64,000 nucleotides of DNA from Candidatus Omnitrophota bacterium (GTDB lineage: Bacteria; Omnitrophota; Gorgyraeia; Gygaellales; Profunditerraquicolaceae): assembly GCA_028716705.1 (NCBI GenBank), contig JAQUPI010000001.1, positions 1,614-65,613 of the forward strand. Direction: 5' to 3'. The notes beneath the pieces were generated by a model. It searched no databases and had not been told where the DNA came from. It saw nothing but the letters and a program-made list of their open reading frames with translations. The position numbers and the translations under genes are program-made. This document shows, one piece after another, positions 48,860-60,002 of the stretch (position 1 is its first letter; every line of letters starts with the position of its first letter).

Positions 48860-49489
48860 GTGAATATCCCCATCGTCTTCGAAGATGAATGGCTTTTGGT
48901 ATTGAATAAACCTTCCGGACTGCTTACCGTACCCACCCCCAAAATGGAATCCCGCACACTGAGCAGTATCCTTAATGATGACCTGAAAGAAAGAGGCATC
49001 GCCTACCGCTTATATCCCTGCCACCGCCTGGACCGGGAAACATCAGGCCTGATCATTTACGCTAAAGGAAAATCCATACAGAAAAAAATGATGGATGAAT
49101 TCAGGGGGAAAACGATAAAAAAAACATACATCGCTTTCTTACGCGAAAGCCCCCCCAAAGATAAAGGGAGGATCGTTTGTCCCATAGAAGGCCAAAACGC
49201 GCTTACCGAATACAGGGTTATCGAAAAGCGCAAAGGCTTCAGCGTGGCTGAAGCGATGCCGTTGACCGGCAGGACCAATCAGATAAGGATACATTTTAAA
49301 CAGATAGGGCATCCTTTGATAGGCGAGTCAAAATTCGCCTTCCGGAGGGATTTTAAGATCAAGGCAAAGCGCGCCATGCTGCATGCTAAAAAACTGGAGT
49401 TTATCCATCCAGTAACGCGTAAATTGTTATCTCTTAAGTCGCCTTTGCCGACTGATATGCTGGATTTTCTAAAAAGACATGAAAATTAA
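48860..49489 (+). CDS. RluA-family pseudouridine synthase
   Basis: GTG start; HRLDRETSGL catalytic Asp motif. Confidence 0.75.
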   Translation: MNIPIVFEDEWLLVLNKPSGLLTVPTPKMESRTLSSILNDDLKERGIAYRLYPCHRLDRETSGLIIYAKGKSIQKKMMDEFRGKTIKKTYIAFLRESPPKDKGRIVCPIEGQNALTEYRVIEKRKGFSVAEAMPLTGRTNQIRIHFKQIGHPLIGESKFAFRRDFKIKAKRAMLHAKKLEFIHPVTRKLLSLKSPLPTDMLDFLKRHEN

Positions 49490-50735
49490 TTCCGGGAAAA
49501 CGAAAAGGGGATTTTTGATATTTTCCTGGGCTCTGTATGACCTGGCGAACCAGTTTTTTGCCCTGAATATCGTAAGCCTGTATTTTGTGCGCTGGATAAC
49601 CCTTGAGATGGGGGCTCCGGAGATTTTTTACAGCATAGCGTTCGGAGTGTCTACGCTTTTCGTGGCTTTAGCGGGCCCAATCCTCGGGACGATCTCAGAC
49701 ATGACAGGCAGGCGCAGGTTCTTTCTGGTGAGCCTTACCCTTTTATCCGTCCTTTTTACCATGATGCTGGGTATGTATCAAAACATCATATACGCTTTAT
49801 TGATATTTATCATAGCCAATTTCGGATGCCAGACGGCGATCGTTTTCTATAATGCCATTCTTGTAAATATCACTCCCCGGCGCAGGGTCGGGCTGGTATC
49901 GGGATTCGGCAAGACCATGGGATATACGGGGGCCATAGCGGCGTTATACCTCATAAAGCCGTTCGTTTTAAAGAGCGGATACCGGGCTACATTTTTTCCC
50001 ACCGGGGTCTTATTTTTGCTCTTCGCTTTACCCTGCATGCTTTTTATAAAAGATAGGCCGCCCACTCAGGCGCTGGCGTGGAGTTATTTCGGGAAGAAAA
50101 AATTAGCCGAGATCTTTTCGATCCTGAAAACAACCGCGTTTGATACATATAAATTCCCGGGGCTTTTGGATTTTCTGAAGGCCTCATTTTGCGGTTTGTG
50201 CGCGGTGAACGCGGTCATTCTGTTTATGTCGATATATGCCACGCGCGCCTTTGGTTTAAATGAGGCCGGGGTGATCGCTTTGGTTTCTTACTCGACGCTC
50301 TTTGCCATCGGCGGAAGCTTCCTCTCCGGTTTCATCAGCGACTATTTCGGCCACAAACGCAGCCTGATAGCGGTATTTATCCTGTGGGGTATTTCTTTTA
50401 CGCTGGGGGCGTTTGTCAGGGATCCGCGCTGGTATTTGGCCATAGGCGCGCTGACCGGCGCCTCTTTGGGTTCGACATGGGTGGTTTCGCGCGCCATGGC
50501 AATAAATATCGTGCCCGCGCACAAGGTAGGAGAAGTATTCGGGCTCTTTAACCTTGTGGGTTACTTTTCGGCTATCATAGGCGCTTTCTTCTGGGGAGCG
50601 ATCATCTTTTTCCTTTCCCGTTTCGGCGAATCAGGGTACCGCATCGCGCTTGTCAGTTTAAATCTGTTCCTTGTCCTGGGGGTTCTCTTCCTTTTGCGCA
50701 TACCTGAAGATAGAAAAAAACCGGATGAGCCATGA
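49479..50735 (+). CDS. MFS transporter, LplT-like (lysophospholipid transporter) by context
   Basis: About 12 TM segments; ATGA overlap with the downstream Aas-like gene, mirroring E. coli lplT-aas. Confidence 0.6.
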   Translation: MKINSGKTKRGFLIFSWALYDLANQFFALNIVSLYFVRWITLEMGAPEIFYSIAFGVSTLFVALAGPILGTISDMTGRRRFFLVSLTLLSVLFTMMLGMYQNIIYALLIFIIANFGCQTAIVFYNAILVNITPRRRVGLVSGFGKTMGYTGAIAALYLIKPFVLKSGYRATFFPTGVLFLLFALPCMLFIKDRPPTQALAWSYFGKKKLAEIFSILKTTAFDTYKFPGLLDFLKASFCGLCAVNAVILFMSIYATRAFGLNEAGVIALVSYSTLFAIGGSFLSGFISDYFGHKRSLIAVFILWGISFTLGAFVRDPRWYLAIGALTGASLGSTWVVSRAMAINIVPAHKVGEVFGLFNLVGYFSAIIGAFFWGAIIFFLSRFGESGYRIALVSLNLFLVLGVLFLLRIPEDRKKPDEP

Positions 50736-53392
50736 ATAAAACATTAACGATCCCCGCCATCTTTAATGAAGTCGCTTCCAAGTTTTCCGATAAGACAGCC
50801 CTGAAGATCAAGCGCGACGGAGATTGGTTCAAACTTAGATACAGCCAGGTCAGGGAAAACGCCTTAAAAGTAGCGGCGTTCCTGATTAAGGAAGGTTGCA
50901 GGAAGAATGACGCCGCCTGCATTATTCTAGAAAATTGTCCGGAATGGCCGGTGATTTATCTGGGTATCGTCTACGCGGGCTTGACCTGCGTCCCCCTTGA
51001 CGCGCACTTAACCGGCCAGGAAGTAAAAAGCCTTGCCGCCGATAGCGGGGCAAAGATATTATTTTGCTCACGCGAGATATATTCAAGTAAAATTGAAAAA
51101 AATATCGGAGACGATAGAATTAAGCCCTTTGTCCTGGAAAACTTTTCCGATATAGAAAACATCACGGCTCCGCCGGCCTTTTTGCCGGAGGTCGATCCGG
51201 ATGATATAGCCTCTTTAATTTATACCTCAGGAACTACCGCGCTTCCCAAAGGGGTCCTATTAAGCCACAATAACATATGCTCAAACGCCATGAGCCTTCT
51301 AAAACTGGATATCTGCCTGGAATCGGATAGCACGCTTTCCATTCTGCCGTTACATCATACTTACGCCTTTATGGTTGCCTTGGTCGTGCCTCTTTTCTTA
51401 GGGGCGACAGTCACATATTGCCCCAGTTTTAAGGCTGAAGACATAAGCCGGACCATAAGAGAAGGCCGGATCTCTATTTTTCCGGGCGTGCCGCAGCTTT
51501 TTTCCATGCTGCATAAAGCAATATCCGAACGCGTGAAGAAAATCCCTCGCGTCCTCCTATTCTTTTTATTGCCTTTTATCCGGCCAAAGATACGCCAGGA
51601 GCTCGGTAACAGCTTGAGGCTTTTGGTCAGCGGCGGAGCAAGGCTTGACCCGCGAACCGGCCGCGGCTTATCGCGCTTACTTGGCATCAAGATGGTCGAG
51701 GGCTACGGCTTGACGGAAACTTCTCCTGTCGTGACTTTAAACCCGGTCAAGAAAATAAAATTCGGCTCTGTGGGCTTACCTATTCCGGATGTCCAGATCA
51801 GGATTTTGAACCCGGATAGATCGGGAGTGGGGCAGGTGCTGATCAAGGGCCCGAATGTAATGCGCGGATATTTTAAGCATCCTGAATGGAGCCGGGCTGT
51901 GATAAAAGACGGCTGGTTTTATTCCGGGGACCTGGGCTATATCGACGCGGAGGGCTACCTTTTCCTTGTCGGCCGGGAGAAGGACGTGATCGTATTGAGT
52001 TCAGGGAAGAATATTTATCCTGAGGAATTGGAAGAATATTACGGTAAGAGCCCGTTCATAAAGGAAATTTGTATTATGGACGTAAAGCAGGAGCGGTTCG
52101 GCCAATTGATCGATACCCTTCAGGCGGTAGTGGTCCCGGACCTGGAATATTTCAAGCGCAAGAAAATGTCTGATGTGCAGGGAAAGATCCGCTGGGAACT
52201 GGAAAACCTCGCCAGCGCCCTGCCCTCCCACAACCACATTATGGGGTTTATCCTCACCAAGGATGAATTGCCGCGGACGGCACTGAGGAAGATCAAAAGA
52301 TATAAGGTTAAGGAGAAATATTTTTCCAGAGGAGAACCCAACGGGAAACCCAATGGCGAAGGCCGCCTTGAAGCCGCGCAGGAGGCGGTTTTTTCCGAAG
52401 AAGACGCCAGGCTCCTGGATAAAGAGGTCGCCAGAAAGACCATTGATTATATTTCCAGAGAGATAAAAAGACCAGTAAATCTCAACAGTCATCTTGAGAT
52501 AGACCTGGGAATAGATTCCTTGACCAAGGTGGACCTGGCGCTGGGGCTGGAAGAACTTTTTAAGGTCAAACTCCCTGAAGAATTATTCTATAGCATCTCC
52601 ACCATCAAAGAACTTATTATAAAGCTCTCCGAAATAACCGGCGAAGGCCGGCATAAAGCCGATGAAACACGAAAAACCTGGAGCCAGATCCTTTCCAAGC
52701 CTTCGGATAAGAAATTACAGGCGGAGCCGCGTTTCGCGGATAAGTTATTCACCCTCGCGTGCAAAATTTCATTTACAATTATTTTAAAAGTCTTTTGGCT
52801 GTTGAAGGTAAAAGGGAGGGATAATCTGCCCGCATCCGGGCCTTATCTGGTTTGCCCCAACCACGCCAGCTATTTAGACGGATTTTTTGTTTTTATCGGC
52901 CTTTCCCGCAGGCTTACTGACCTATTCTTCCTGGGTTATAGCGACATTCTGGAACATCCCCTTTTAAAATGGGCGATCAAGCCGGCAAGGCTTATCCCGA
53001 TCGACCCAAATACAAACTTAACAGACGCCATGCAGGCGGTATCTTATCTGCTTTCACAGGGGAAGATCGTTTGTATCTTTCCCGAAGGAAGGCGCTCTAT
53101 AAATGAGAACATAGGAAAGTTCAAAAAAGGAATAGGGATATTGATCAGGGAGCTGAATATTCCCGTCGTTCCGGCCTATATTAAAGGTTCGTATAAGTCT
53201 TGGCCCAGGACGAAGCGGTTCCCGCGTTTTTATCCGGTAAAGGTAATTTTCGGGCGGCCGAAGACAGCGAAAGACCTGTTAGAAGGAAAGGCCGGCAAAG
53301 ACGATTATGAGACCATTGCGGCTAATTTAAGGGAAGAGGTCATAGGATTGGCGGATCCACAAAATTTACAGAAAGTAGACTCAAACCATTGA
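50732..53392 (+). CDS. Tri-domain acyl-AMP ligase (FadD-like) / acyl-carrier (phosphopantetheine-binding) / PlsC-type lysophospholipid acyltransferase fusion (Aas-like with permuted domain order)
   Basis: AMP-binding motif YTSGTTALPKGV; carrier DLGIDSLTKVDL; acyltransferase HxxxxD (CPNHASYLDG) and FPEGRRS blocks. Confidence 0.75.
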   Translation: MNKTLTIPAIFNEVASKFSDKTALKIKRDGDWFKLRYSQVRENALKVAAFLIKEGCRKNDAACIILENCPEWPVIYLGIVYAGLTCVPLDAHLTGQEVKSLAADSGAKILFCSREIYSSKIEKNIGDDRIKPFVLENFSDIENITAPPAFLPEVDPDDIASLIYTSGTTALPKGVLLSHNNICSNAMSLLKLDICLESDSTLSILPLHHTYAFMVALVVPLFLGATVTYCPSFKAEDISRTIREGRISIFPGVPQLFSMLHKAISERVKKIPRVLLFFLLPFIRPKIRQELGNSLRLLVSGGARLDPRTGRGLSRLLGIKMVEGYGLTETSPVVTLNPVKKIKFGSVGLPIPDVQIRILNPDRSGVGQVLIKGPNVMRGYFKHPEWSRAVIKDGWFYSGDLGYIDAEGYLFLVGREKDVIVLSSGKNIYPEELEEYYGKSPFIKEICIMDVKQERFGQLIDTLQAVVVPDLEYFKRKKMSDVQGKIRWELENLASALPSHNHIMGFILTKDELPRTALRKIKRYKVKEKYFSRGEPNGKPNGEGRLEAAQEAVFSEEDARLLDKEVARKTIDYISREIKRPVNLNSHLEIDLGIDSLTKVDLALGLEELFKVKLPEELFYSISTIKELIIKLSEITGEGRHKADETRKTWSQILSKPSDKKLQAEPRFADKLFTLACKISFTIILKVFWLLKVKGRDNLPASGPYLVCPNHASYLDGFFVFIGLSRRLTDLFFLGYSDILEHPLLKWAIKPARLIPIDPNTNLTDAMQAVSYLLSQGKIVCIFPEGRRSINENIGKFKKGIGILIRELNIPVVPAYIKGSYKSWPRTKRFPRFYPVKVIFGRPKTAKDLLEGKAGKDDYETIAANLREEVIGLADPQNLQKVDSNH

Positions 53393-53471: not shown

Positions 53472-56400
53472 ATGTCTGAGATAAAAGCCAAGGAAATAAG
53501 AACAAAACTCAGGGTCATATTTATGACCCTATTTTTTTGCCTGTTTAGTAAGCTTGCATTTGCAGAAACCACAGCCAGTATATCCGTATCCGGAAGCAGA
53601 GGCGTCATTGATATTTCAACATCCACTTTTTTTTCTGTGGACCCGGATACCGGAAGGACCGGCGGGACTGTAGCCATATACAGGGACAGTTCCAAGATCT
53701 ACGAAGCCTCTACTACAAAATATCCCTCTTGGGCTTATTCTTTTAGATACAGCACGATAGAGTTTATTGATGGCTCCCATACTTTTTCGGTCGTCGCTAC
53801 TTCGTGGGACGGCTCCTCTGCTTCAGATTCGCAAGCAATTCAGACAGATAATTCCCCCCGAATAAATATAATCTCTCCGCAAGGCGAAACGCGAGGAGTA
53901 GTAGACGTTAACATATCCTACAGCTACCCAAGCAGTCATAACACTTCTCCCAATATGTACCTTGATTTATACACAAATCCCGCTAATCCGAATCCAAGCT
54001 ATACCATGTATCTTGCCCTGAGCAATACCGCTGAAACGCAAGGAAACTGGATTCTTAAAATCGATACCACTGCTTGGAGAGACGGGGCCAGGACCATAAG
54101 GGCTGTTACCAGGAATATCAGAAACGCGGTGACTGCCACCTCGGATGTCGTGAGTAATAACACCCCTTATGTCATTTTATCTCCCGGAGACGGAAAAATA
54201 ACGAGAGGGATAATTCCCGTCAATGTAACTTACAGCTTTCCCAGCACTGCTTCAGCTGTAGGTATTCCCAATGCATATTTGACTTTTTATATCGATAATG
54301 TCGCGAAAAGCGCATATTGGTTCGCTTTAAGCGATACTTCCGAGACTACGGGCATTTGGAGCTTTAATATAGATACGAGTAATTGGGCGGAAGGCAGCGC
54401 TCATACTTTAAAAATTACAACACTGACGCACCCCAACCAGGCTATCATGGTCTCGAATGTAATAGTCGCAAAGAAAACTACCGAAGTCCCGCTCACCCGT
54501 CTTCTTTCCAAGGATAAGGGCACGGTTGTGGGCGAGCCAATCAATGTGGCTACCGGCAATATGTTCACTTCGCAAACCGATATCCTCATTCCTGGCCGCG
54601 AGATCCCGCTTGAGCTCTCCCGCACCTATAACAGCCAGGATGACTTTGGAGGGCAATTCGGTTATGGCTGGCGCTCTAATTTTGATATCGTTTTAACCGA
54701 TGAATCCGACCGGGTCATTGAGGTGGATGAAACAGGGGTCTATACCATTTACGATAAGGATTCCGATGGAACCTATAAACCCTCAGCCGGGAAATATTCT
54801 GTTTTAACCAAGAATCCCGAAGGAACCTATACGATATTAAGGAAGAGCGGCCGTAAACTCTACTTTGACAGCCAGGGTTGGCTTATAAAAATAGGAGGCA
54901 GGAACGGGAACTTTATCAATATCCTGCGCGACTCCAACGGCACGATAACAGAGATCAGCGACGCCTCAACCAGGAAATTATTATTTACCGCTGACAGCCA
55001 GGGAAGGATTGTCCGGGTAACTGACCAGCAGGAAAGAACCTTTAAATACGAATATGACACAAACGGCGATCTCATCAAAACCATTGACCCCTTAAATCAG
55101 GAGACTCTTTATCAATACGATAGTAATCACAACCTCATCCGGCAAACCGATGCCAATAGCCATTCGTTATACTTTGAATACGATTCCTCTGATCGCGCCT
55201 ATCATTCCTGGCAGGATGAGCATAATAATGAGGTGACTTTATCCTTTGACCCGGAAAATAAGACTACCATTACAACCGATTCTTTAGGCAATGCTACTAA
55301 ATACGAATATGACGATTACGGCTTAGTTACCAAAATCACCGACAGCCAGAATAAGGTCCAGAGTTTTATCTGGGATAGCGACTTAAATAAAACCGCATCC
55401 ACTGACCAGAATGGGAACACCGCTCTTTTCACCTATGACTCAAGGGGCAACCTCTTGACCGTAAAAGACCCGCTCAATAACACCGCCGCCTTTACCTATG
55501 AGCCGGATTTTGACCTGGTAAGCTCTATTACGGATGCCCTGGGAGCTGTCACGCAGTATACCTACGATGCCAGAGGTAATTTAATTAAAATAAAAGACGC
55601 CCTGGATAATGCCACTGACTGCATTTACAATGTGCAAGGAGACCTTATCCAGCTAAAAGACGCGAACAATAATATTACTAATTTTACCTATGATGCTTTT
55701 GGCAATCTCGCCCAGGCAGTTGATGCCCTGAATAACCCTACAAGCTTTACTTATGATATACTTGGCAACCTCGTTCGGACTACGGATGCCGTAGGCAACG
55801 CTACTCAATTTACCTACGATGCGTTAAACCGGCTTATCCGGATAACTTACCCGGATAATTCCCAGGCAGCCAGGGCTTATGATCCCGTAGGTAATTTGAT
55901 AACCTCTACTGATCCTAACAACCAAATCACCAGCTATGCCTATGATACAGTCAACCGCCTCATCCAGGTAACCGATCCTCAAGGCAATATTACTCAATGT
56001 GCTTATGACAGCGAAGGAAACCGCACCTCTGCCGTTGATGCCGCGGGAAACGTTCAGAGGTATTTCTACGATAGTTTAAACCGGCCAATCCGCACCCTTG
56101 ATGCTTTAAATAACCAGGCCAATTTTGTTTACGACCCTGCGGGAAATCTTATTTCCCGGACCGATGCCAATGGCAATACCATAAACTATACCTATGATTC
56201 CCTGAACCGTCTGCTCAAAAAACAATACCCGGATTCAACCGAGGAGGCTTTCGACTATGATCCCCGGGGAAATATGCTCAGCTGTTCTGATCCTGAGATC
56301 TCCTATAATTTGAGCTATGACGCGTTAGGCAGGCTAATCGATCTAACCGATTCGAATAACGCGAAGCTTTCCTACGCCTATGATCCCGTGGGAAATAAGA

Positions 56401-57965
56401 TCAAAACGACCACTCCCGAAGACAGAACTATCAGTTACTATTACGACGGATTAAATCAGCTGGCTTCTCTTGTGGATATCTACGGAAAATCCACCACCTA
56501 TACCTATGACAGCTTGGGCAGGAGGATAAAAACCACGCTTCCTAACTCAACTACCGCATCCTATACTTATGATGCCTTAAGCCGGCTGCTTAGTTTAACC
56601 AATAAAACCAGCTCAGGCGCGATCATCTCAAGCTATACCTATACTTATGATAGTGTGGGTAATCGCCTCACCAGAGTAGAGCCGCATTTAAAGACCTCCT
56701 ATGCCTACGATGATCTATATCAGCTTACCCAAAGCTCCTTCACCAGGCTTAAAGGCCACAAAAGCGATATAGAGGAAGATCTCGAGGAGGATGACGATGA
56801 AGATGATGACGAAGAAGAAAAAGACAGCCGCAAAGAGCCAAAAGAACGCTTGACTGAAGCCTATACCTATGATGTTCTGGGCAATCGTCTCACCTCCTTG
56901 AAAGATACCTACACTTATAATCCCCTGAATCAGCTCTTGGCCACAGATAAATATGCCTACGAATACGACCATAACGGCAATCTCATCCGTAAGACCGAGC
57001 TTGACGAAAACGAAGCCCCGGTTACCTTTAATTATGAATACGATTACGAGAACAGGTTAAAGCAGGTCCGGATCGAAAAAGAAGACGAAAGTAAGATAAT
57101 CTCCTTTGGCTATGATCCTTTCGGAAGAAGAATAAGAAAAACAATACAAAAAGAAGATAAGACAGAGACCACAACCTACATATATGACAACGAGGATATC
57201 ATCCTGGAATACCGCAGGGATGGTTCAAAGCCGTCCAAACAAGAAGTAGTCCGCTACACCCACGGTCCGGGCACGGATGAGCCGATTTCGATGGAGCGAA
57301 AGAAAAAACGCTTCTACTACCACTATGACGGCTTAGGCAGCGTCACTGAATTTACCAGCCAGAAACAAAAGACAGCTGAGCGCTACGAATATGACTCCTT
57401 TGGCAATCTCTACCGCCAAGGCAACCGCACCAAAAACACATACACCTTCACCGGCAGGGAATTCGATAAAGAAACCGGCCTCTACTACTACCGCAACCGT
57501 TACTATGATCCTAAAGTAGGCAGGTTCATTACCCAGGATCCATTGGGCATGGTCGACGGTCCGAATATGTATGCGTATGTCAGGAATAATCCAATTACTT
57601 TTGTAGATCCGTGGGGATGGTGTAAAAAAACTGGATGGTGGCCAAGATGGTTAAATTTAATTGTGCCTGGCTATAGAAATTATGGTGGTCCATCTAGAAG
57701 TGGGCCTTTGCTACCAGAAGACTTATTGGATGCTGCATTTCAAAGGCATGATATTGGTTATAGGGAAGGAAATTTAGATTTTGCTGATTTGCAATTATTA
57801 AATGATCTTTCTAATCTTCCGCCGGATCCTCGAAACTGGGGAGAAGGAGTAAATCCTATTTATGCTAGACTATACCGGAAAAGTGCATTTATTATTTTTG
57901 CGACTCGACAAACAATCCGACAAGGTACAAAAGAACTAGAACGATTAGAATATCTTGCAGTGTAA
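53472..57965 (+). CDS. rhs: Rhs/YD-repeat polymorphic toxin (1497 aa): Sec signal peptide, three tandem ~105-aa N-terminal repeat domains, RHS shell with YD repeats, DPxGL/PWGW autoproteolysis motif, C-terminal PLA2-like toxin domain
   Basis: Signal MTLFFCLFSKLAFA; RHS hallmark VATGNMF...GYGWRSNFD; dozens of YxYDxxGNL repeats; FITQDPLGMVDGPNMYAYVRNNPITFVDPWGW core end; then a 114-aa AT-rich tail. Confidence 0.9.
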   Translation: MSEIKAKEIRTKLRVIFMTLFFCLFSKLAFAETTASISVSGSRGVIDISTSTFFSVDPDTGRTGGTVAIYRDSSKIYEASTTKYPSWAYSFRYSTIEFIDGSHTFSVVATSWDGSSASDSQAIQTDNSPRINIISPQGETRGVVDVNISYSYPSSHNTSPNMYLDLYTNPANPNPSYTMYLALSNTAETQGNWILKIDTTAWRDGARTIRAVTRNIRNAVTATSDVVSNNTPYVILSPGDGKITRGIIPVNVTYSFPSTASAVGIPNAYLTFYIDNVAKSAYWFALSDTSETTGIWSFNIDTSNWAEGSAHTLKITTLTHPNQAIMVSNVIVAKKTTEVPLTRLLSKDKGTVVGEPINVATGNMFTSQTDILIPGREIPLELSRTYNSQDDFGGQFGYGWRSNFDIVLTDESDRVIEVDETGVYTIYDKDSDGTYKPSAGKYSVLTKNPEGTYTILRKSGRKLYFDSQGWLIKIGGRNGNFINILRDSNGTITEISDASTRKLLFTADSQGRIVRVTDQQERTFKYEYDTNGDLIKTIDPLNQETLYQYDSNHNLIRQTDANSHSLYFEYDSSDRAYHSWQDEHNNEVTLSFDPENKTTITTDSLGNATKYEYDDYGLVTKITDSQNKVQSFIWDSDLNKTASTDQNGNTALFTYDSRGNLLTVKDPLNNTAAFTYEPDFDLVSSITDALGAVTQYTYDARGNLIKIKDALDNATDCIYNVQGDLIQLKDANNNITNFTYDAFGNLAQAVDALNNPTSFTYDILGNLVRTTDAVGNATQFTYDALNRLIRITYPDNSQAARAYDPVGNLITSTDPNNQITSYAYDTVNRLIQVTDPQGNITQCAYDSEGNRTSAVDAAGNVQRYFYDSLNRPIRTLDALNNQANFVYDPAGNLISRTDANGNTINYTYDSLNRLLKKQYPDSTEEAFDYDPRGNMLSCSDPEISYNLSYDALGRLIDLTDSNNAKLSYAYDPVGNKIKTTTPEDRTISYYYDGLNQLASLVDIYGKSTTYTYDSLGRRIKTTLPNSTTASYTYDALSRLLSLTNKTSSGAIISSYTYTYDSVGNRLTRVEPHLKTSYAYDDLYQLTQSSFTRLKGHKSDIEEDLEEDDDEDDDEEEKDSRKEPKERLTEAYTYDVLGNRLTSLKDTYTYNPLNQLLATDKYAYEYDHNGNLIRKTELDENEAPVTFNYEYDYENRLKQVRIEKEDESKIISFGYDPFGRRIRKTIQKEDKTETTTYIYDNEDIILEYRRDGSKPSKQEVVRYTHGPGTDEPISMERKKKRFYYHYDGLGSVTEFTSQKQKTAERYEYDSFGNLYRQGNRTKNTYTFTGREFDKETGLYYYRNRYYDPKVGRFITQDPLGMVDGPNMYAYVRNNPITFVDPWGWCKKTGWWPRWLNLIVPGYRNYGGPSRSGPLLPEDLLDAAFQRHDIGYREGNLDFADLQLLNDLSNLPPDPRNWGEGVNPIYARLYRKSAFIIFATRQTIRQGTKELERLEYLAV
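56893..57505 (+). repeat. 613-bp segment of rhs (RHS core end) that is 100% identical to 58375..58987 in the orphan cassette
   Basis: Nucleotide identity checked by eye at both ends and in the middle (offset 1482 bp); identity breaks at 57506/58988, then decays. Confidence 0.85.
57621..57962 (+). other. C-terminal toxin domain 1 of Rhs: phospholipase A2-like (parvovirus VP1u/PLA2 motif)
   Basis: YRNYGGPSRSGPLLPEDLLDAAFQRHDIGY aligns with the viral PLA2 consensus YxGPG...DAAAKEHDEAY (Ca loop + HD catalytic dyad with the same about 18-aa spacing). Confidence 0.55.
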
Positions 57966-57978
57966 AGGAGGGATAAGA

Positions 57979-58212
57979 ATGAAACTCAAAGATAATCAAA
58001 TAATTAAAATATTTGTATTGTCGTTTCTCCTTATGGAATTTATGTTAATTAGTTTTTGCTTCGTTTCATGCGAAAATGCTCCTCTATTAATTCGCTTGAT
58101 AATTATCTTATTAGTTATAATTTGTTGTTTATGCCTATTTTATTTTATTTTTAGATTTTTAATCTGGATTATAAAAAAAATTGTAATTGTGAAGAATAAA
58201 TTAACACGATAA
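57979..58212 (+). CDS. Putative cognate immunity protein 1: 77-aa hydrophobic (2-3 TM) membrane protein
   Basis: RBS AAAGGAGGG; Cys/Ile/Leu-rich TM helices; immediately downstream of the toxin; AT-rich. Confidence 0.5.
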   Translation: MKLKDNQIIKIFVLSFLLMEFMLISFCFVSCENAPLLIRLIIILLVIICCLCLFYFIFRFLIWIIKKIVIVKNKLTR

Positions 58213-58256
58213 GAATAATAATGGAATTCCGGGGAGGTACCAATTCCGGGTAGAAG

Positions 58257-58320
58257 ACGCTCTTTATAATTTTTTCTTGATTTCATTAGATATGAAATAA
58301 TTCCTTCCGCCTTCTAATCA
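58257..58320 (+). repeat. Junction repeat R1 (about 65 bp) downstream of immunity gene 1; imperfect copy at 59873..59940
   Basis: CGCTCTTTATAA...AATAATTCCTTCC...TTCTA shared blocks; about 75% identity. Confidence 0.6.
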
Positions 58321-58328
58321 AATCTGCG

Positions 58329-59453
58329 ATGAAAATAGAAATATCCAAAATCACCCCCTTAGGTAACCGTTTAACCTCCTTGAAAGATACCTACACTTAT
58401 AATCCCCTGAATCAGCTCTTGGCCACAGATAAATATGCCTACGAATACGACCATAACGGCAATCTCATCCGTAAGACCGAGCTTGACGAAAACGAAGCCC
58501 CGGTTACCTTTAATTATGAATACGATTACGAGAACAGGTTAAAGCAGGTCCGGATCGAAAAAGAAGACGAAAGTAAGATAATCTCCTTTGGCTATGATCC
58601 TTTCGGAAGAAGAATAAGAAAAACAATACAAAAAGAAGATAAGACAGAGACCACAACCTACATATATGACAACGAGGATATCATCCTGGAATACCGCAGG
58701 GATGGTTCAAAGCCGTCCAAACAAGAAGTAGTCCGCTACACCCACGGTCCGGGCACGGATGAGCCGATTTCGATGGAGCGAAAGAAAAAACGCTTCTACT
58801 ACCACTATGACGGCTTAGGCAGCGTCACTGAATTTACCAGCCAGAAACAAAAGACAGCTGAGCGCTACGAATATGACTCCTTTGGCAATCTCTACCGCCA
58901 AGGCAACCGCACCAAAAACACATACACCTTCACCGGCAGGGAATTCGATAAAGAAACCGGCCTCTACTACTACCGCAACCGTTACTACGACCCTGCGATC
59001 GGCCGCTTCATCACCCAGGACCCGCTGGGGATGGTCGATGGGCCGAATATGTATACGTATGTAAACAATAATCCGGTGAATTTTGTGGATCCGTGGGGAT
59101 TGTGCGGGACAGATAAAAGTAAGCATTGGGGTCCAGAATGGTTAGAAAAATTAATTCCTGATTATGAAGGATATGGCGGGCCTGATAGAACAGATCTAAC
59201 TTTTAAAACAAGACCAACAGATAGCATGGACGAGATATTTATGCAACATGATTTCTTATGGTTTAAGGGATATGGAAAACAAGCAGATACAATAATATTT
59301 TCTAATCTTGTTAATCTACCTTTAAATCCCTATAACTGGGAAAATAAACCGAGAAATCTTATTTGGGCTGTGTTATATCGTGAAAGCGCTATTATATATT
59401 TTGGATATAAGGAGATAATAAAAGGAGAAGCGAATGATAAAAAAACCAACTAG
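58329..59453 (+). CDS. Orphan rhs C-terminal cassette: truncated RHS core fragment (homology from about 58363) plus alternative diverged PLA2-like toxin domain (59103..59450)
   Basis: The N-terminal MKIEISK is not homologous and lacks an RBS; from LGNRLTSLKD onward it is identical or near-identical to Rhs residues about 1134-1376, then ends DPWGLCG + 116-aa tail with YEGYGGP...DEIFMQHDFLW. Confidence 0.7.
   Translation: MKIEISKITPLGNRLTSLKDTYTYNPLNQLLATDKYAYEYDHNGNLIRKTELDENEAPVTFNYEYDYENRLKQVRIEKEDESKIISFGYDPFGRRIRKTIQKEDKTETTTYIYDNEDIILEYRRDGSKPSKQEVVRYTHGPGTDEPISMERKKKRFYYHYDGLGSVTEFTSQKQKTAERYEYDSFGNLYRQGNRTKNTYTFTGREFDKETGLYYYRNRYYDPAIGRFITQDPLGMVDGPNMYTYVNNNPVNFVDPWGLCGTDKSKHWGPEWLEKLIPDYEGYGGPDRTDLTFKTRPTDSMDEIFMQHDFLWFKGYGKQADTIIFSNLVNLPLNPYNWENKPRNLIWAVLYRESAIIYFGYKEIIKGEANDKKTN
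58375..58987 (+). repeat. Second copy of the 613-bp identical rhs segment
   Basis: See 56893..57505. Confidence 0.85.
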
Positions 59454-59793
59454 AGTTATTTTAATTTCAGGTCTAGGTTTAATTATTGGAATTTTTAATA
59501 TTTTTGTATACTCTAATCATAATAGTCCGATTTTTCTTACTATCGGAGTTACATGTTTTATACTAAGTATAGGTTTATTTAAATTAAATAATTGGGCACG
59601 TATGCTGACTATAATTATGGCTAGCGTGTTCATTATAATTTATGGTGCATTGCTAATATATACATTTGCATATTACGAGCAACATCATGGGTTTGCCGGA
59701 ATCGCTCTTATTTTTCACTTGCCTTTATTATTGCTATCCATTTGGTCTTTAGATTGTTTGAATAACCCAGGTATTAAAACATTATTTCATTGA
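59434..59793 (+). CDS. Putative cognate immunity protein 2: 119-aa polytopic membrane protein
   Basis: RBS AAAGGAGAAG; 3-4 predicted TM helices; overlaps the orphan toxin stop; AT-rich. Confidence 0.5.
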   Translation: MIKKPTRVILISGLGLIIGIFNIFVYSNHNSPIFLTIGVTCFILSIGLFKLNNWARMLTIIMASVFIIIYGALLIYTFAYYEQHHGFAGIALIFHLPLLLLSIWSLDCLNNPGIKTLFH

Positions 59794-59872
59794 AACAACC
59801 AATTATGGGAATTCTAGGGACACAATACTTATTTTAATTAAGTAATTGTGGAAAAATAACAAAAATAGCAAG

Positions 59873-59940
59873 GCGCTCTTTATAAGTCTTTCTCATCCGT
59901 TTAGGTATAAAATAATTCCTTCCATCGATTCTATTAAACT
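59873..59940 (+). repeat. Junction repeat R2 (imperfect copy of 58257..58320) downstream of immunity gene 2
   Basis: See R1. Confidence 0.6.
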
Positions 59941-60002
59941 TTCATTAACCTTAAAGAAAGGGGGCGCTTCTATATTTCGCATCCTTTTCTCCAAACCAAC
60001 CC

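Follow-up and report, generated by a model that had tools for sequence, protein, structure and literature searches.

Divergent phospholipase A2-like domains as predicted toxin tails at an Rhs locus of a Candidatus Omnitrophota bacterium

Introduction

The type VI secretion system (T6SS) lipase effectors Tle1-4 are interbacterial toxins that hydrolyse membrane phospholipids and are encoded next to a cognate immunity gene. They are alpha/beta-hydrolases with a GxSxG motif, and their Tli immunity proteins are periplasmic soluble proteins or lipoproteins. The present study concerns two phospholipase A2 (PLA2)-like tails of an Rhs locus in a 64,000-nucleotide stretch of DNA from a Candidatus Omnitrophota bacterium (assembly GCA_028716705.1, contig JAQUPI010000001.1, positions 1,614 to 65,613 of the forward strand). 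This whole stretch is referred to below as the window, and positions are counted from its first letter.

PLA2-fold domains on Rhs carriers have been described before. Tox-PLA2 was reported as a PLA2-fold domain that ends polymorphic toxins of the RHS-repeat and filamentous kinds at their C-terminus, with predicted lipid hydrolysis (Zhang, Aravind et al. 2012; PMC3482391). It is of the 1kp4 type, with the motifs DxC[ST] and CxxHxxxYxN and conserved cysteines, and no immunity family was listed for it (PMC3482391). Nte1 from Neisseria cinerea is a T6SS effector of PAAR-Rhs-PLA2_like (cd00618) architecture; it shows toxicity only after targeting to the periplasm, and Nti1, the product of the adjacent gene, neutralises it (PMC8263058). 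A sequence-only reading of the window, which had proposed a PLA2 motif of the parvovirus VP1u type in both tails, regarded such domains on Rhs carriers as at most sparsely described; Tox-PLA2 (2012) and Nte1 (2021) are already published examples.

Results

Sequence relationships of the two tails

Tail 1 (57621..57962, + strand, 114 amino acids) ends the long Rhs protein of the window, and tail 2 (59103..59450, + strand, 116 amino acids) ends an orphan Rhs cassette. The translations give exactly the peptides that had been quoted for these intervals, and tail 1 does start at residue 1384 of the 1497-residue open reading frame (ORF), which is the Cys right after DPWGW. Judged by profile searches and by a structural model, both tails truly belong to the PLA2 superfamily, if as divergent members, and have kept its catalytic His-Asp, as had been proposed. 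Their mutual homology is clear (E 6e-22 over 103 residues), and the identity is 38% rather than the earlier estimate of about 30%; they represent a single family from which each has diverged in its own way.

A word-indexed protein search with each tail returned the tails themselves and one homologue, P0002, which is 64% identical and is an orphan cassette beside another Rhs gene. The profile of these three sequences (A1) gave 32 weak matches in the PDB (E 0.17-1.8), 30 of which were secreted PLA2s or the N-terminus of adeno-associated virus (AAV) VP1, residues 44-80; the matches were aligned in register on the glycine loop and on the His-Asp pair. Scored exhaustively against 1.8 billion protein representatives, A1 found 170 clusters (defined at 50% identity) at E <= 1e-3, including 41 at E <= 1e-10. 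A search for related genome loci based on the same profile found two.

A second alignment (A2, in tail 1 numbering) was composed of the two tails and 63 short representatives, 65 sequences altogether. It matched 150 PDB sequences at E < 1, and all 60 among the matches listed are PLA2s, with a best E of 4.6e-7. The match to rice PLA2 (E 3e-6) spans the loop, the HD motif and the second helix. Used in the word-indexed protein search, A2 returned 15 proteins only, which were unnamed or carried the labels 'hypothetical' or 'RHS repeat'.

The 65 members were also scanned singly. PF08398 was matched by 21 of them, PF00068 by 10, PLA2G12 by four and PF05826 by three, and PF09056, which we take to be the Pfam family of the Streptomyces 1kp4-type Tox-PLA2, was not among the families matched at E <= 1. 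One distant relative, P0120, scores above the gathering threshold of PF08398 (33.2 versus 23.9 bits) and is found by the tail profile with a library-wide E of 3e-5. Neither of the two tails, for which a comparison with PF08398 had been suggested, matches that family even at E <= 10. The tails do not match PF00068 either; the best relative reaches 30.2 bits against a gathering score of 32.1 bits, and the disulfide framework of that family is missing. The term parvovirus VP1u-type is apt as far as the cysteine-free character and the most frequent Pfam match are concerned, but the family as such lies between the parvoviral and the plant and secreted PLA2s.

A profile of the close subfamily (23 sequences) matched Rhs/TccC plugs in the PDB through its junction region (E 2e-15), followed by PLA2s in almost all of the matches listed (best E 0.016); the one listed non-Rhs exception to the PLA2s matched the junction region. 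A merely coincidental likeness of motifs, with the tails forming an unrelated all-helical toxin domain, is already disfavoured at this point and seems to us hardly credible.

Conserved residues and predicted structure

Within A2, residues Y18, D37, H43 and D44 are invariant (65/65), and G22, G23, D34, D56, L59, Y85 and F93 are conserved in at least 90% of the sequences. The tail 1 loop Y21-G22-G23-P24-S25 (57681..57695; this and all further features are on the + strand) is the equivalent of the Ca2+-binding [YW]xGxG loop of PLA2s, both in the 65-sequence alignment and in hidden Markov model (HMM) alignments to secreted PLA2s and to rice PLA2. Position 21 is W, Y or F in 64 of the 65 sequences; G22 is found in 61, G23 in 63, P24 in 48 and Gly at position 25 in 38. 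The family consensus is thus [WY]-G-G-P-G, and its third Gly is lost in both tails, tail 1 having Ser and tail 2 Asp in its stead; the loop of tail 2 in the family alignment is Y24-G-G-P-D28 (59172..59186). A YxGxG motif had been ascribed to both tails. They do share a homologous loop, Y-G-G-P-S and Y-G-G-P-D respectively, but the literal motif is present only in tail 2 (Y-E-G-Y-G), where it lies three residues out of register.

The segment H43-D44-I-G-Y47 of tail 1 (57747..57761) aligns with the HD of solved PLA2 structures and is the equivalent of H48-D49-x-x-Y52 in secreted PLA2s. Its counterpart in the family alignment of tail 2 is H49-D50-F-L-W53 (59247..59261); the HDxxY pattern is therefore complete in tail 1, and in tail 2 the HD is present with Trp instead of Tyr. 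Across the alignment position 47 is Tyr in 46/65 and Trp in 11/65. The spacing of about 18 residues given previously is not what the tails have: the His follows the loop Tyr at a distance of 22 residues in the first tail and of 25 in the second. Residue D56 of tail 1 (57786..57788), aligned with D62 of tail 2 (59286..59288), is Asp in 62 of 65 sequences and falls on the Asn of rice PLA2 ...CNENL... in the HMM alignment. By its place in the sequence it would be the Asp that partners the catalytic His, and we regard both residues as candidates for the role of Asp99.

A template-free AlphaFold2 (AF2) model of tail 1, built on A2, has a predicted local distance difference test (pLDDT) value of 92.4 and a predicted template modelling (pTM) score of 0.83; an earlier model from three sequences (pLDDT 73.6) was left out of the fold searches. 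The model has helices at residues 35-48 (with D37, H43, D44 and Y47), 52-64 (with D56) and 79-113, which is the three-helix core fold of PLA2. An AlphaFold model had been recommended as a check on the placement of the HD motif, and the outcome agrees with the proposal, H43-D44 lying on the first of these helices and D56 on the next. The recommended Foldseek comparison pointed in the same direction with less force: rice PLA2 ranked first in the PDB, at E 0.47. Of the first 27 matches in BFVD, most are VP1 proteins of parvoviruses and densoviruses or one of two phage 'PLA2 domain' proteins (E 0.15-2, TM score about 0.5).

It may be asked whether a domain with these substitutions is still an enzyme. 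The tails could have a PLA2 fold without catalysis and act through membrane damage or target binding, in the manner of the Lys49 PLA2-like snake myotoxins. The loss of the third Gly of the Ca2+ loop in both tails and the Trp at the Tyr52 position of tail 2 would agree with this, the long amphipathic C-terminal helix of the model (79-113) could contact membranes, and membrane-embedded immunity candidates, described below, would also suit a membrane-inserting toxin. However, H43 and the predicted Ca2+ ligand D44 are invariant in all 65 sequences, D56 is kept in 62, and catalytically dead PLA2 homologues typically lose the Asp49 position. Moreover, the loop ligands of PLA2s are backbone carbonyls, and a change of Gly to Ser or Asp is therefore not necessarily disabling. 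We consider a purely non-catalytic role quite unlikely and continue to regard the tails as predicted phospholipases.

The Rhs carrier and its junction

The full-length Rhs polymorphic toxin gene occupies 53472..57965 and encodes 1497 amino acids. The order of domains in its product is a Sec-type signal peptide, an unmatched N-terminal region, DUF6531, RHS/YD repeats, DPWGW and the PLA2-like tail. The RHS/YD repeats (Pfam RHS_repeat, E 5.9e-100 over 20 stretches) together with the DUF6531-type N-terminal plug region (Pfam, E 6.2e-22, residues 354-424) identify it as an Rhs polymorphic toxin. The predicted Sec signal peptide, read from the translation, is MSEIKAKEIRTKLRVIFMTLFFCLFSKLAFA before ETT (53472..53564). 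The hallmarks of a T6SS effector, namely an N-terminal PAAR or linkage to VgrG or T6SS genes, were not seen in the protein or among the neighbouring ORFs scanned, which were some of those in the window: Pfam gave no match to PAAR or VgrG anywhere in the protein, NCBIfam gave none of any kind for residues 1-376, and a Sec-type signal peptide is present instead.

Residues 32-353 (53565..54530), from the signal peptide to DUF6531, match neither Pfam nor NCBIfam and apparently contain two alike segments of ~100 amino acids each (INIISPQGETRGVVDVNISYSYPSS and YVILSPGDGKITRGIIPVNVTYSFPST). This region may be a cell-surface or receptor-binding module in place of the PAAR that T6SS-linked Rhs proteins have. 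At ~56740..56830 (residues ~1090-1120) the repeat region has a strongly acidic insert, DIEEDLEEDDDEDDDEEEKDSRKE, which lies just upstream of the segment that is duplicated in the orphan and gives rise to spurious weak Pfam matches to NOA36 and CENP-B.

The Rhs core ends with DPWGW at 57606..57620 (NNPITFVDPWGW, then C). Its C-terminus reads YYDPKVGRFITQDPLGMVDGPNMYAYVRNNPITFVDPWGW, followed by the Cys that opens the tail, in other words a DPxG[LW] motif and a variable tail. The NNP..xxDPxG[LW] segment of the close relatives aligns with the C-terminal end of solved Rhs/TccC shells (E 2e-15). Autoproteolytic cutting at such a junction is known from the Rhs family, and cleavage after DPWGW would presumably release the tail here.

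The GC content is 0.33-0.39 over the two tail and immunity modules (57500..60000) versus 0.47-0.50 in the flanking housekeeping genes, and the low values are consistent with horizontally exchanged cassettes.

Orphan cassette and strain variants

The orphan Rhs C-terminal cassette (58329..59453, 374 amino acids) repeats the final part of the Rhs core and continues into a different tail. A repeat search, together with a comparison of identity by position (offset 1482), located a core stretch of ~610 nucleotides at 56884..57495, with its copy at ~58366-58977, and the main gene and the orphan are essentially 100% identical over it. The ~130 nucleotides on its 3' side are about 75-80% identical, and the similarity ends exactly at the start of the tail. 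The identical repeat is likely a substrate for tail swapping by homologous recombination. An orphan tip and immunity cassette that shares core sequence with the main gene, and a small ORF behind each tail, are as expected of an Rhs system, the immunity role being a prediction.

Strain variants of the locus are present in two other metagenome assemblies (L018:1591-2749 and L019:1591-2749), which are 98-99.6% identical to the window over the parts in common. Both tails occur in them as short orphan cassettes. Upstream of these there is a third orphan Rhs tip, missing from the window, with a tail that carries a GHSWGG (GxSxG) alpha/beta-hydrolase motif and is followed by a 113-amino-acid polytopic membrane ORF. 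These arrangements differ from that of the window, which means that the order of cassettes has been shuffled from strain to strain. Part of the array is a second lipase-type toxin, unrelated to the PLA2-like tails and likewise paired with a membrane protein.

Relatives in Rhs proteins and phages

The same type of tail ends at least four other long DUF6531-RHS proteins (P0004, P0030, P0044 and P0121) as well as the Rhs protein of a metagenome-assembled genome (MAG) of Candidatus Omnitrophota (L002). A D[PL]xG[LW] junction is found upstream of the domain in 36 of 149 relatives.

About 64 of the 149 family representatives are stand-alone proteins of 60-140 amino acids that start at the domain, typically in the form M..WWQRL.P.YGNWGGPGWSGG...DSMD..F..HD..Y. 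Relatives are encoded on seven IMG/VR viral contigs (L012-L017 among them). One stand-alone member, at 6001-6333 of L004/L011 (IMGVR_UViG_3300032202_000009), is located 3.3 kb downstream of a tape-measure gene, the phage contig being 20.7 kb long. The family to which the Rhs tips belong thus also includes small PLA2-like proteins of tailed phages.

Downstream membrane proteins

Immunity candidate 1 (57979..58212) has 77 amino acids and two hydrophobic helices. Its likely start is the ATG at 57979, with AAGGAGG before it at 57965-57971; the mechanical start of the ORF is the TTG at 57955. Immunity candidate 2 (59434..59793, 119 amino acids, about four hydrophobic helices) overlaps the end of the orphan by 20 nucleotides, and its weak Pfam matches are to membrane-protein DUFs only. 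The small polytopic membrane ORFs behind the tails, already singled out in the sequence-only reading, proved to be a recurrent feature, since an ORF with 2-4 hydrophobic helices lies immediately downstream in all seven related loci examined.

Candidate 1 is 41% identical to the 79-amino-acid ORF behind the PLA2-tailed Rhs of the Omnitrophota MAG (E 3e-13, pairwise), a similarity that is much weaker under different BLAST settings. Candidate 2 resembles an uncalled ORF that follows the PLA2-tailed Rhs of L009 (29% identity over 90 amino acids, E 1.7e-5). The downstream ORFs of L001 and L008 are alike (E 3e-29), and that of L010 stands alone. The notion that the candidates form a single family was rejected, as there are three or four families of them at the least, and between these hardly any similarity, or none, could be detected. 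To judge from sequence, the tiny downstream membrane protein probably protects the producer.

The immunity candidates also bear on what the tails attack. Active PLA2-fold hydrolases might have some other substrate or target, such as lysophospholipids or the acyl chains of lipoproteins or lipid A, or they might attack the membranes of a host or prey organism, eukaryotic or archaeal, and not those of sibling bacteria. The Omnitrophota, in which one close relative is found in a MAG, are a phylum thought to include host-dependent or predatory cells; tailed phages encode stand-alone members beside tail genes, where a role in envelope penetration is plausible; and no T6SS or PAAR is associated with the Rhs gene of the window among the ORFs scanned. 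Against this stand the small ORF behind every tail, the orphan-cassette architecture, which is the signature of self-protection in interbacterial competition, and the catalytic residues, which are those of glycerophospholipid sn-2 esterases. Another substrate or target appears unlikely to us, and an interbacterial toxin directed at glycerophospholipids is the reading that we prefer.

Genes upstream of the Rhs gene

The large neighbouring ORFs scanned around the Rhs locus are housekeeping genes, and between positions 1 and 39100 every ORF of at least 180 amino acids that lies outside larger ORFs is on the + strand. Directly upstream of the Rhs gene there are two genes (49479..53392) that overlap each other by 4 nucleotides. 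The first encodes a major facilitator superfamily (MFS) transporter of 418 amino acids. The second encodes an 886-amino-acid fusion of AMP-binding, PP-binding and Acyltransferase domains, and among its NCBIfam matches acyl-[ACP]--phospholipid O-acyltransferase ranks second, with a score well below the cutoff. The pair resembles the LplT/Aas type of lysophospholipid uptake and re-acylation, by which E. coli repairs the damage that PLA2 causes. The possibility that the pair serves the PLA2 as its own repair or immunity module was considered and rejected, as the pair is absent beside the related loci L001 and L002; for this reason the adjacency is probably coincidental.

Discussion

In our judgment it is fairly probable that the locus is a Sec-exported Rhs system with interchangeable, small, disulfide-free tips of the PLA2 superfamily, which act as Ca2+-dependent sn-2 phospholipases and are accompanied by membrane-protein protection and orphan recombination. 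Export of the Rhs protein by Sec would be the first step of the delivery route. The YD-repeat shell would enclose the tail, which would be cut off after DPWGW. In the envelope of the target cell, working from the periplasmic or outer side, the tail would hydrolyse the sn-2 acyl ester of membrane glycerophospholipids, with water activated by the His43/Asp56 pair and Ca2+ held by Asp44 and the backbone carbonyls of the Y21-G-G-P-x loop, and the lysophospholipids and free fatty acids produced would damage the membrane. The small polytopic membrane protein whose gene directly follows each tail would shield the producer, and the orphan cassette could replace the expressed tail through recombination across the ~610-nucleotide identical core repeat. 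For periplasm-specific toxicity and cognate immunity of an Rhs-PLA2 there is a precedent in Nte1/Nti1 (PMC8263058).

Several observations weigh against this scheme or the PLA2 assignment on which it is built. At E <= 10 neither tail matches Pfam or NCBIfam, at E <= 0.01 neither matches PHROGs, and single-sequence phmmer searches of the PDB with the tails gave irrelevant weak matches only; the significant link to PLA2s is therefore a transitive one, made through more canonical members of the family. The Foldseek E-values are weak (0.47 in the PDB and 0.15 in BFVD). In the Ca2+ loop, Ser (tail 1) or Asp (tail 2) stands in place of the third Gly, and the Tyr52 position is Trp in tail 2. The sole Cys of each tail is its first residue, and the disulfide framework of the cellular secreted PLA2s is therefore absent. 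The parvoviral PLA2s are likewise without that framework, and Cys is altogether absent from 66 of 151 family domains. The immunity candidates are split into at least three or four families and their pairing with toxin subtypes is not one-to-one. Finally, delivery machinery was not identified among the ORFs scanned, which were part of those in the 64-kb window.

The general picture is unchanged, because PLA2 domains on Rhs carriers were predicted in 2012 and one was shown to be toxic in 2021. What is new here is a distinct cysteine-free PLA2 branch, with the tails of the window unseen by the curated models of Pfam, NCBIfam and PHROGs, with membrane-protein partners and with relatives in tailed phages. 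The Rhs repertoire thereby gains a predicted lipid-targeting toxin family of about 170 clusters at 50% identity. The relatives encountered here are labelled only 'hypothetical protein' or RHS-repeat protein in the sources, and current annotation models miss the tails of the window. For a phospholipase, immunity conferred by such consistently tiny membrane-protein partners would be unusual.

Bacterial toxin tips, tailed-phage proteins and the parvoviral capsid PLA2 are found in one sequence continuum, which bears on the origin of the viral PLA2 domain. A bolder proposal, which we put forward tentatively and with more doubt than confidence, is that the cysteine-free family common to Rhs tips and tailed-phage proteins is the prokaryotic sister group, or even the source, of the parvovirus VP1u phospholipase, and that the toxins are neutralised inside the bilayer by dedicated membrane proteins of 2-4 helices. 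If true, PLA2 immunity within the bilayer would be of another kind than that given by the Tli proteins, which are soluble or lipoproteins, or by the protein inhibitors of PLA2 known to date.

Compared with the known systems, the proposed window system resembles Tle1-4 in its mode of action, a phospholipid-hydrolysing interbacterial toxin with an adjacent cognate immunity gene. The tails, however, have an all-helical PLA2 fold and small polytopic membrane proteins as immunity candidates, whereas Tle1-4 pair an alpha/beta-hydrolase with Tli. Tox-PLA2 is likewise a PLA2-fold toxin domain at the end of RHS-repeat proteins, but its motifs are missing in the tails, which have D-L-L-D or D-S-M-D and F-x-x-H-D-x-x-[YW] without Cys and which we do not assign to that family. 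Nte1 shares with the window protein an Rhs carrier and a C-terminal domain of the PLA2 superfamily. By its published description, on which alone the comparison is based, Nte1 has an N-terminal PAAR and is linked to T6SS, whereas in the window protein a Sec signal peptide is predicted and PAAR is missing.

The best solved-structure match is the plant group XI PLA2 of rice (PDB 2wg7/2wg8/2wg9), with a sequence identity of about 17%. In the profile alignment the rice enzyme and the tail family are matched over the loop and the His-Asp region, YGKYCG...PCDALDACCMVHDHC in the rice enzyme versus YGNyGGpgwsGG...piDslDelFkeHDlaY in the family (E 3e-6). Plant PLA2s are held by several disulfides, and the aligned segment of the rice enzyme is rich in Cys, whereas the tails have Cys as the first residue only; rice PLA2 also has Asn where the tail family has D56.

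The PLA2 of parvovirus and densovirus VP1u (PF08398) is, like the tails, a small, essentially cysteine-free helical domain with [YW]xGxG, HDxxY ~20 residues later and a downstream Asp. Residues 44-80 of AAV VP1 align with tail 1 VPGYRNYGGP...DAAFQRHDIGY, more relatives match PF08398 than any other Pfam family (21/65) and one relative is above its threshold, and parvovirus and densovirus VP1 head the BFVD fold list at a TM score of about 0.5, the single E-values being weak (0.15-2). Unlike members of PF08398, neither tail matches that family at E <= 10, and both have the third loop Gly replaced. The tail family also has a conserved C-terminal helix of its own, LP.NP..W ... YR..A...F, unlike the parvoviral PLA2. 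The carriers differ as well, since the parvoviral domain is part of a capsid protein and the tail family is carried by Rhs shells, by phages or as stand-alone proteins.

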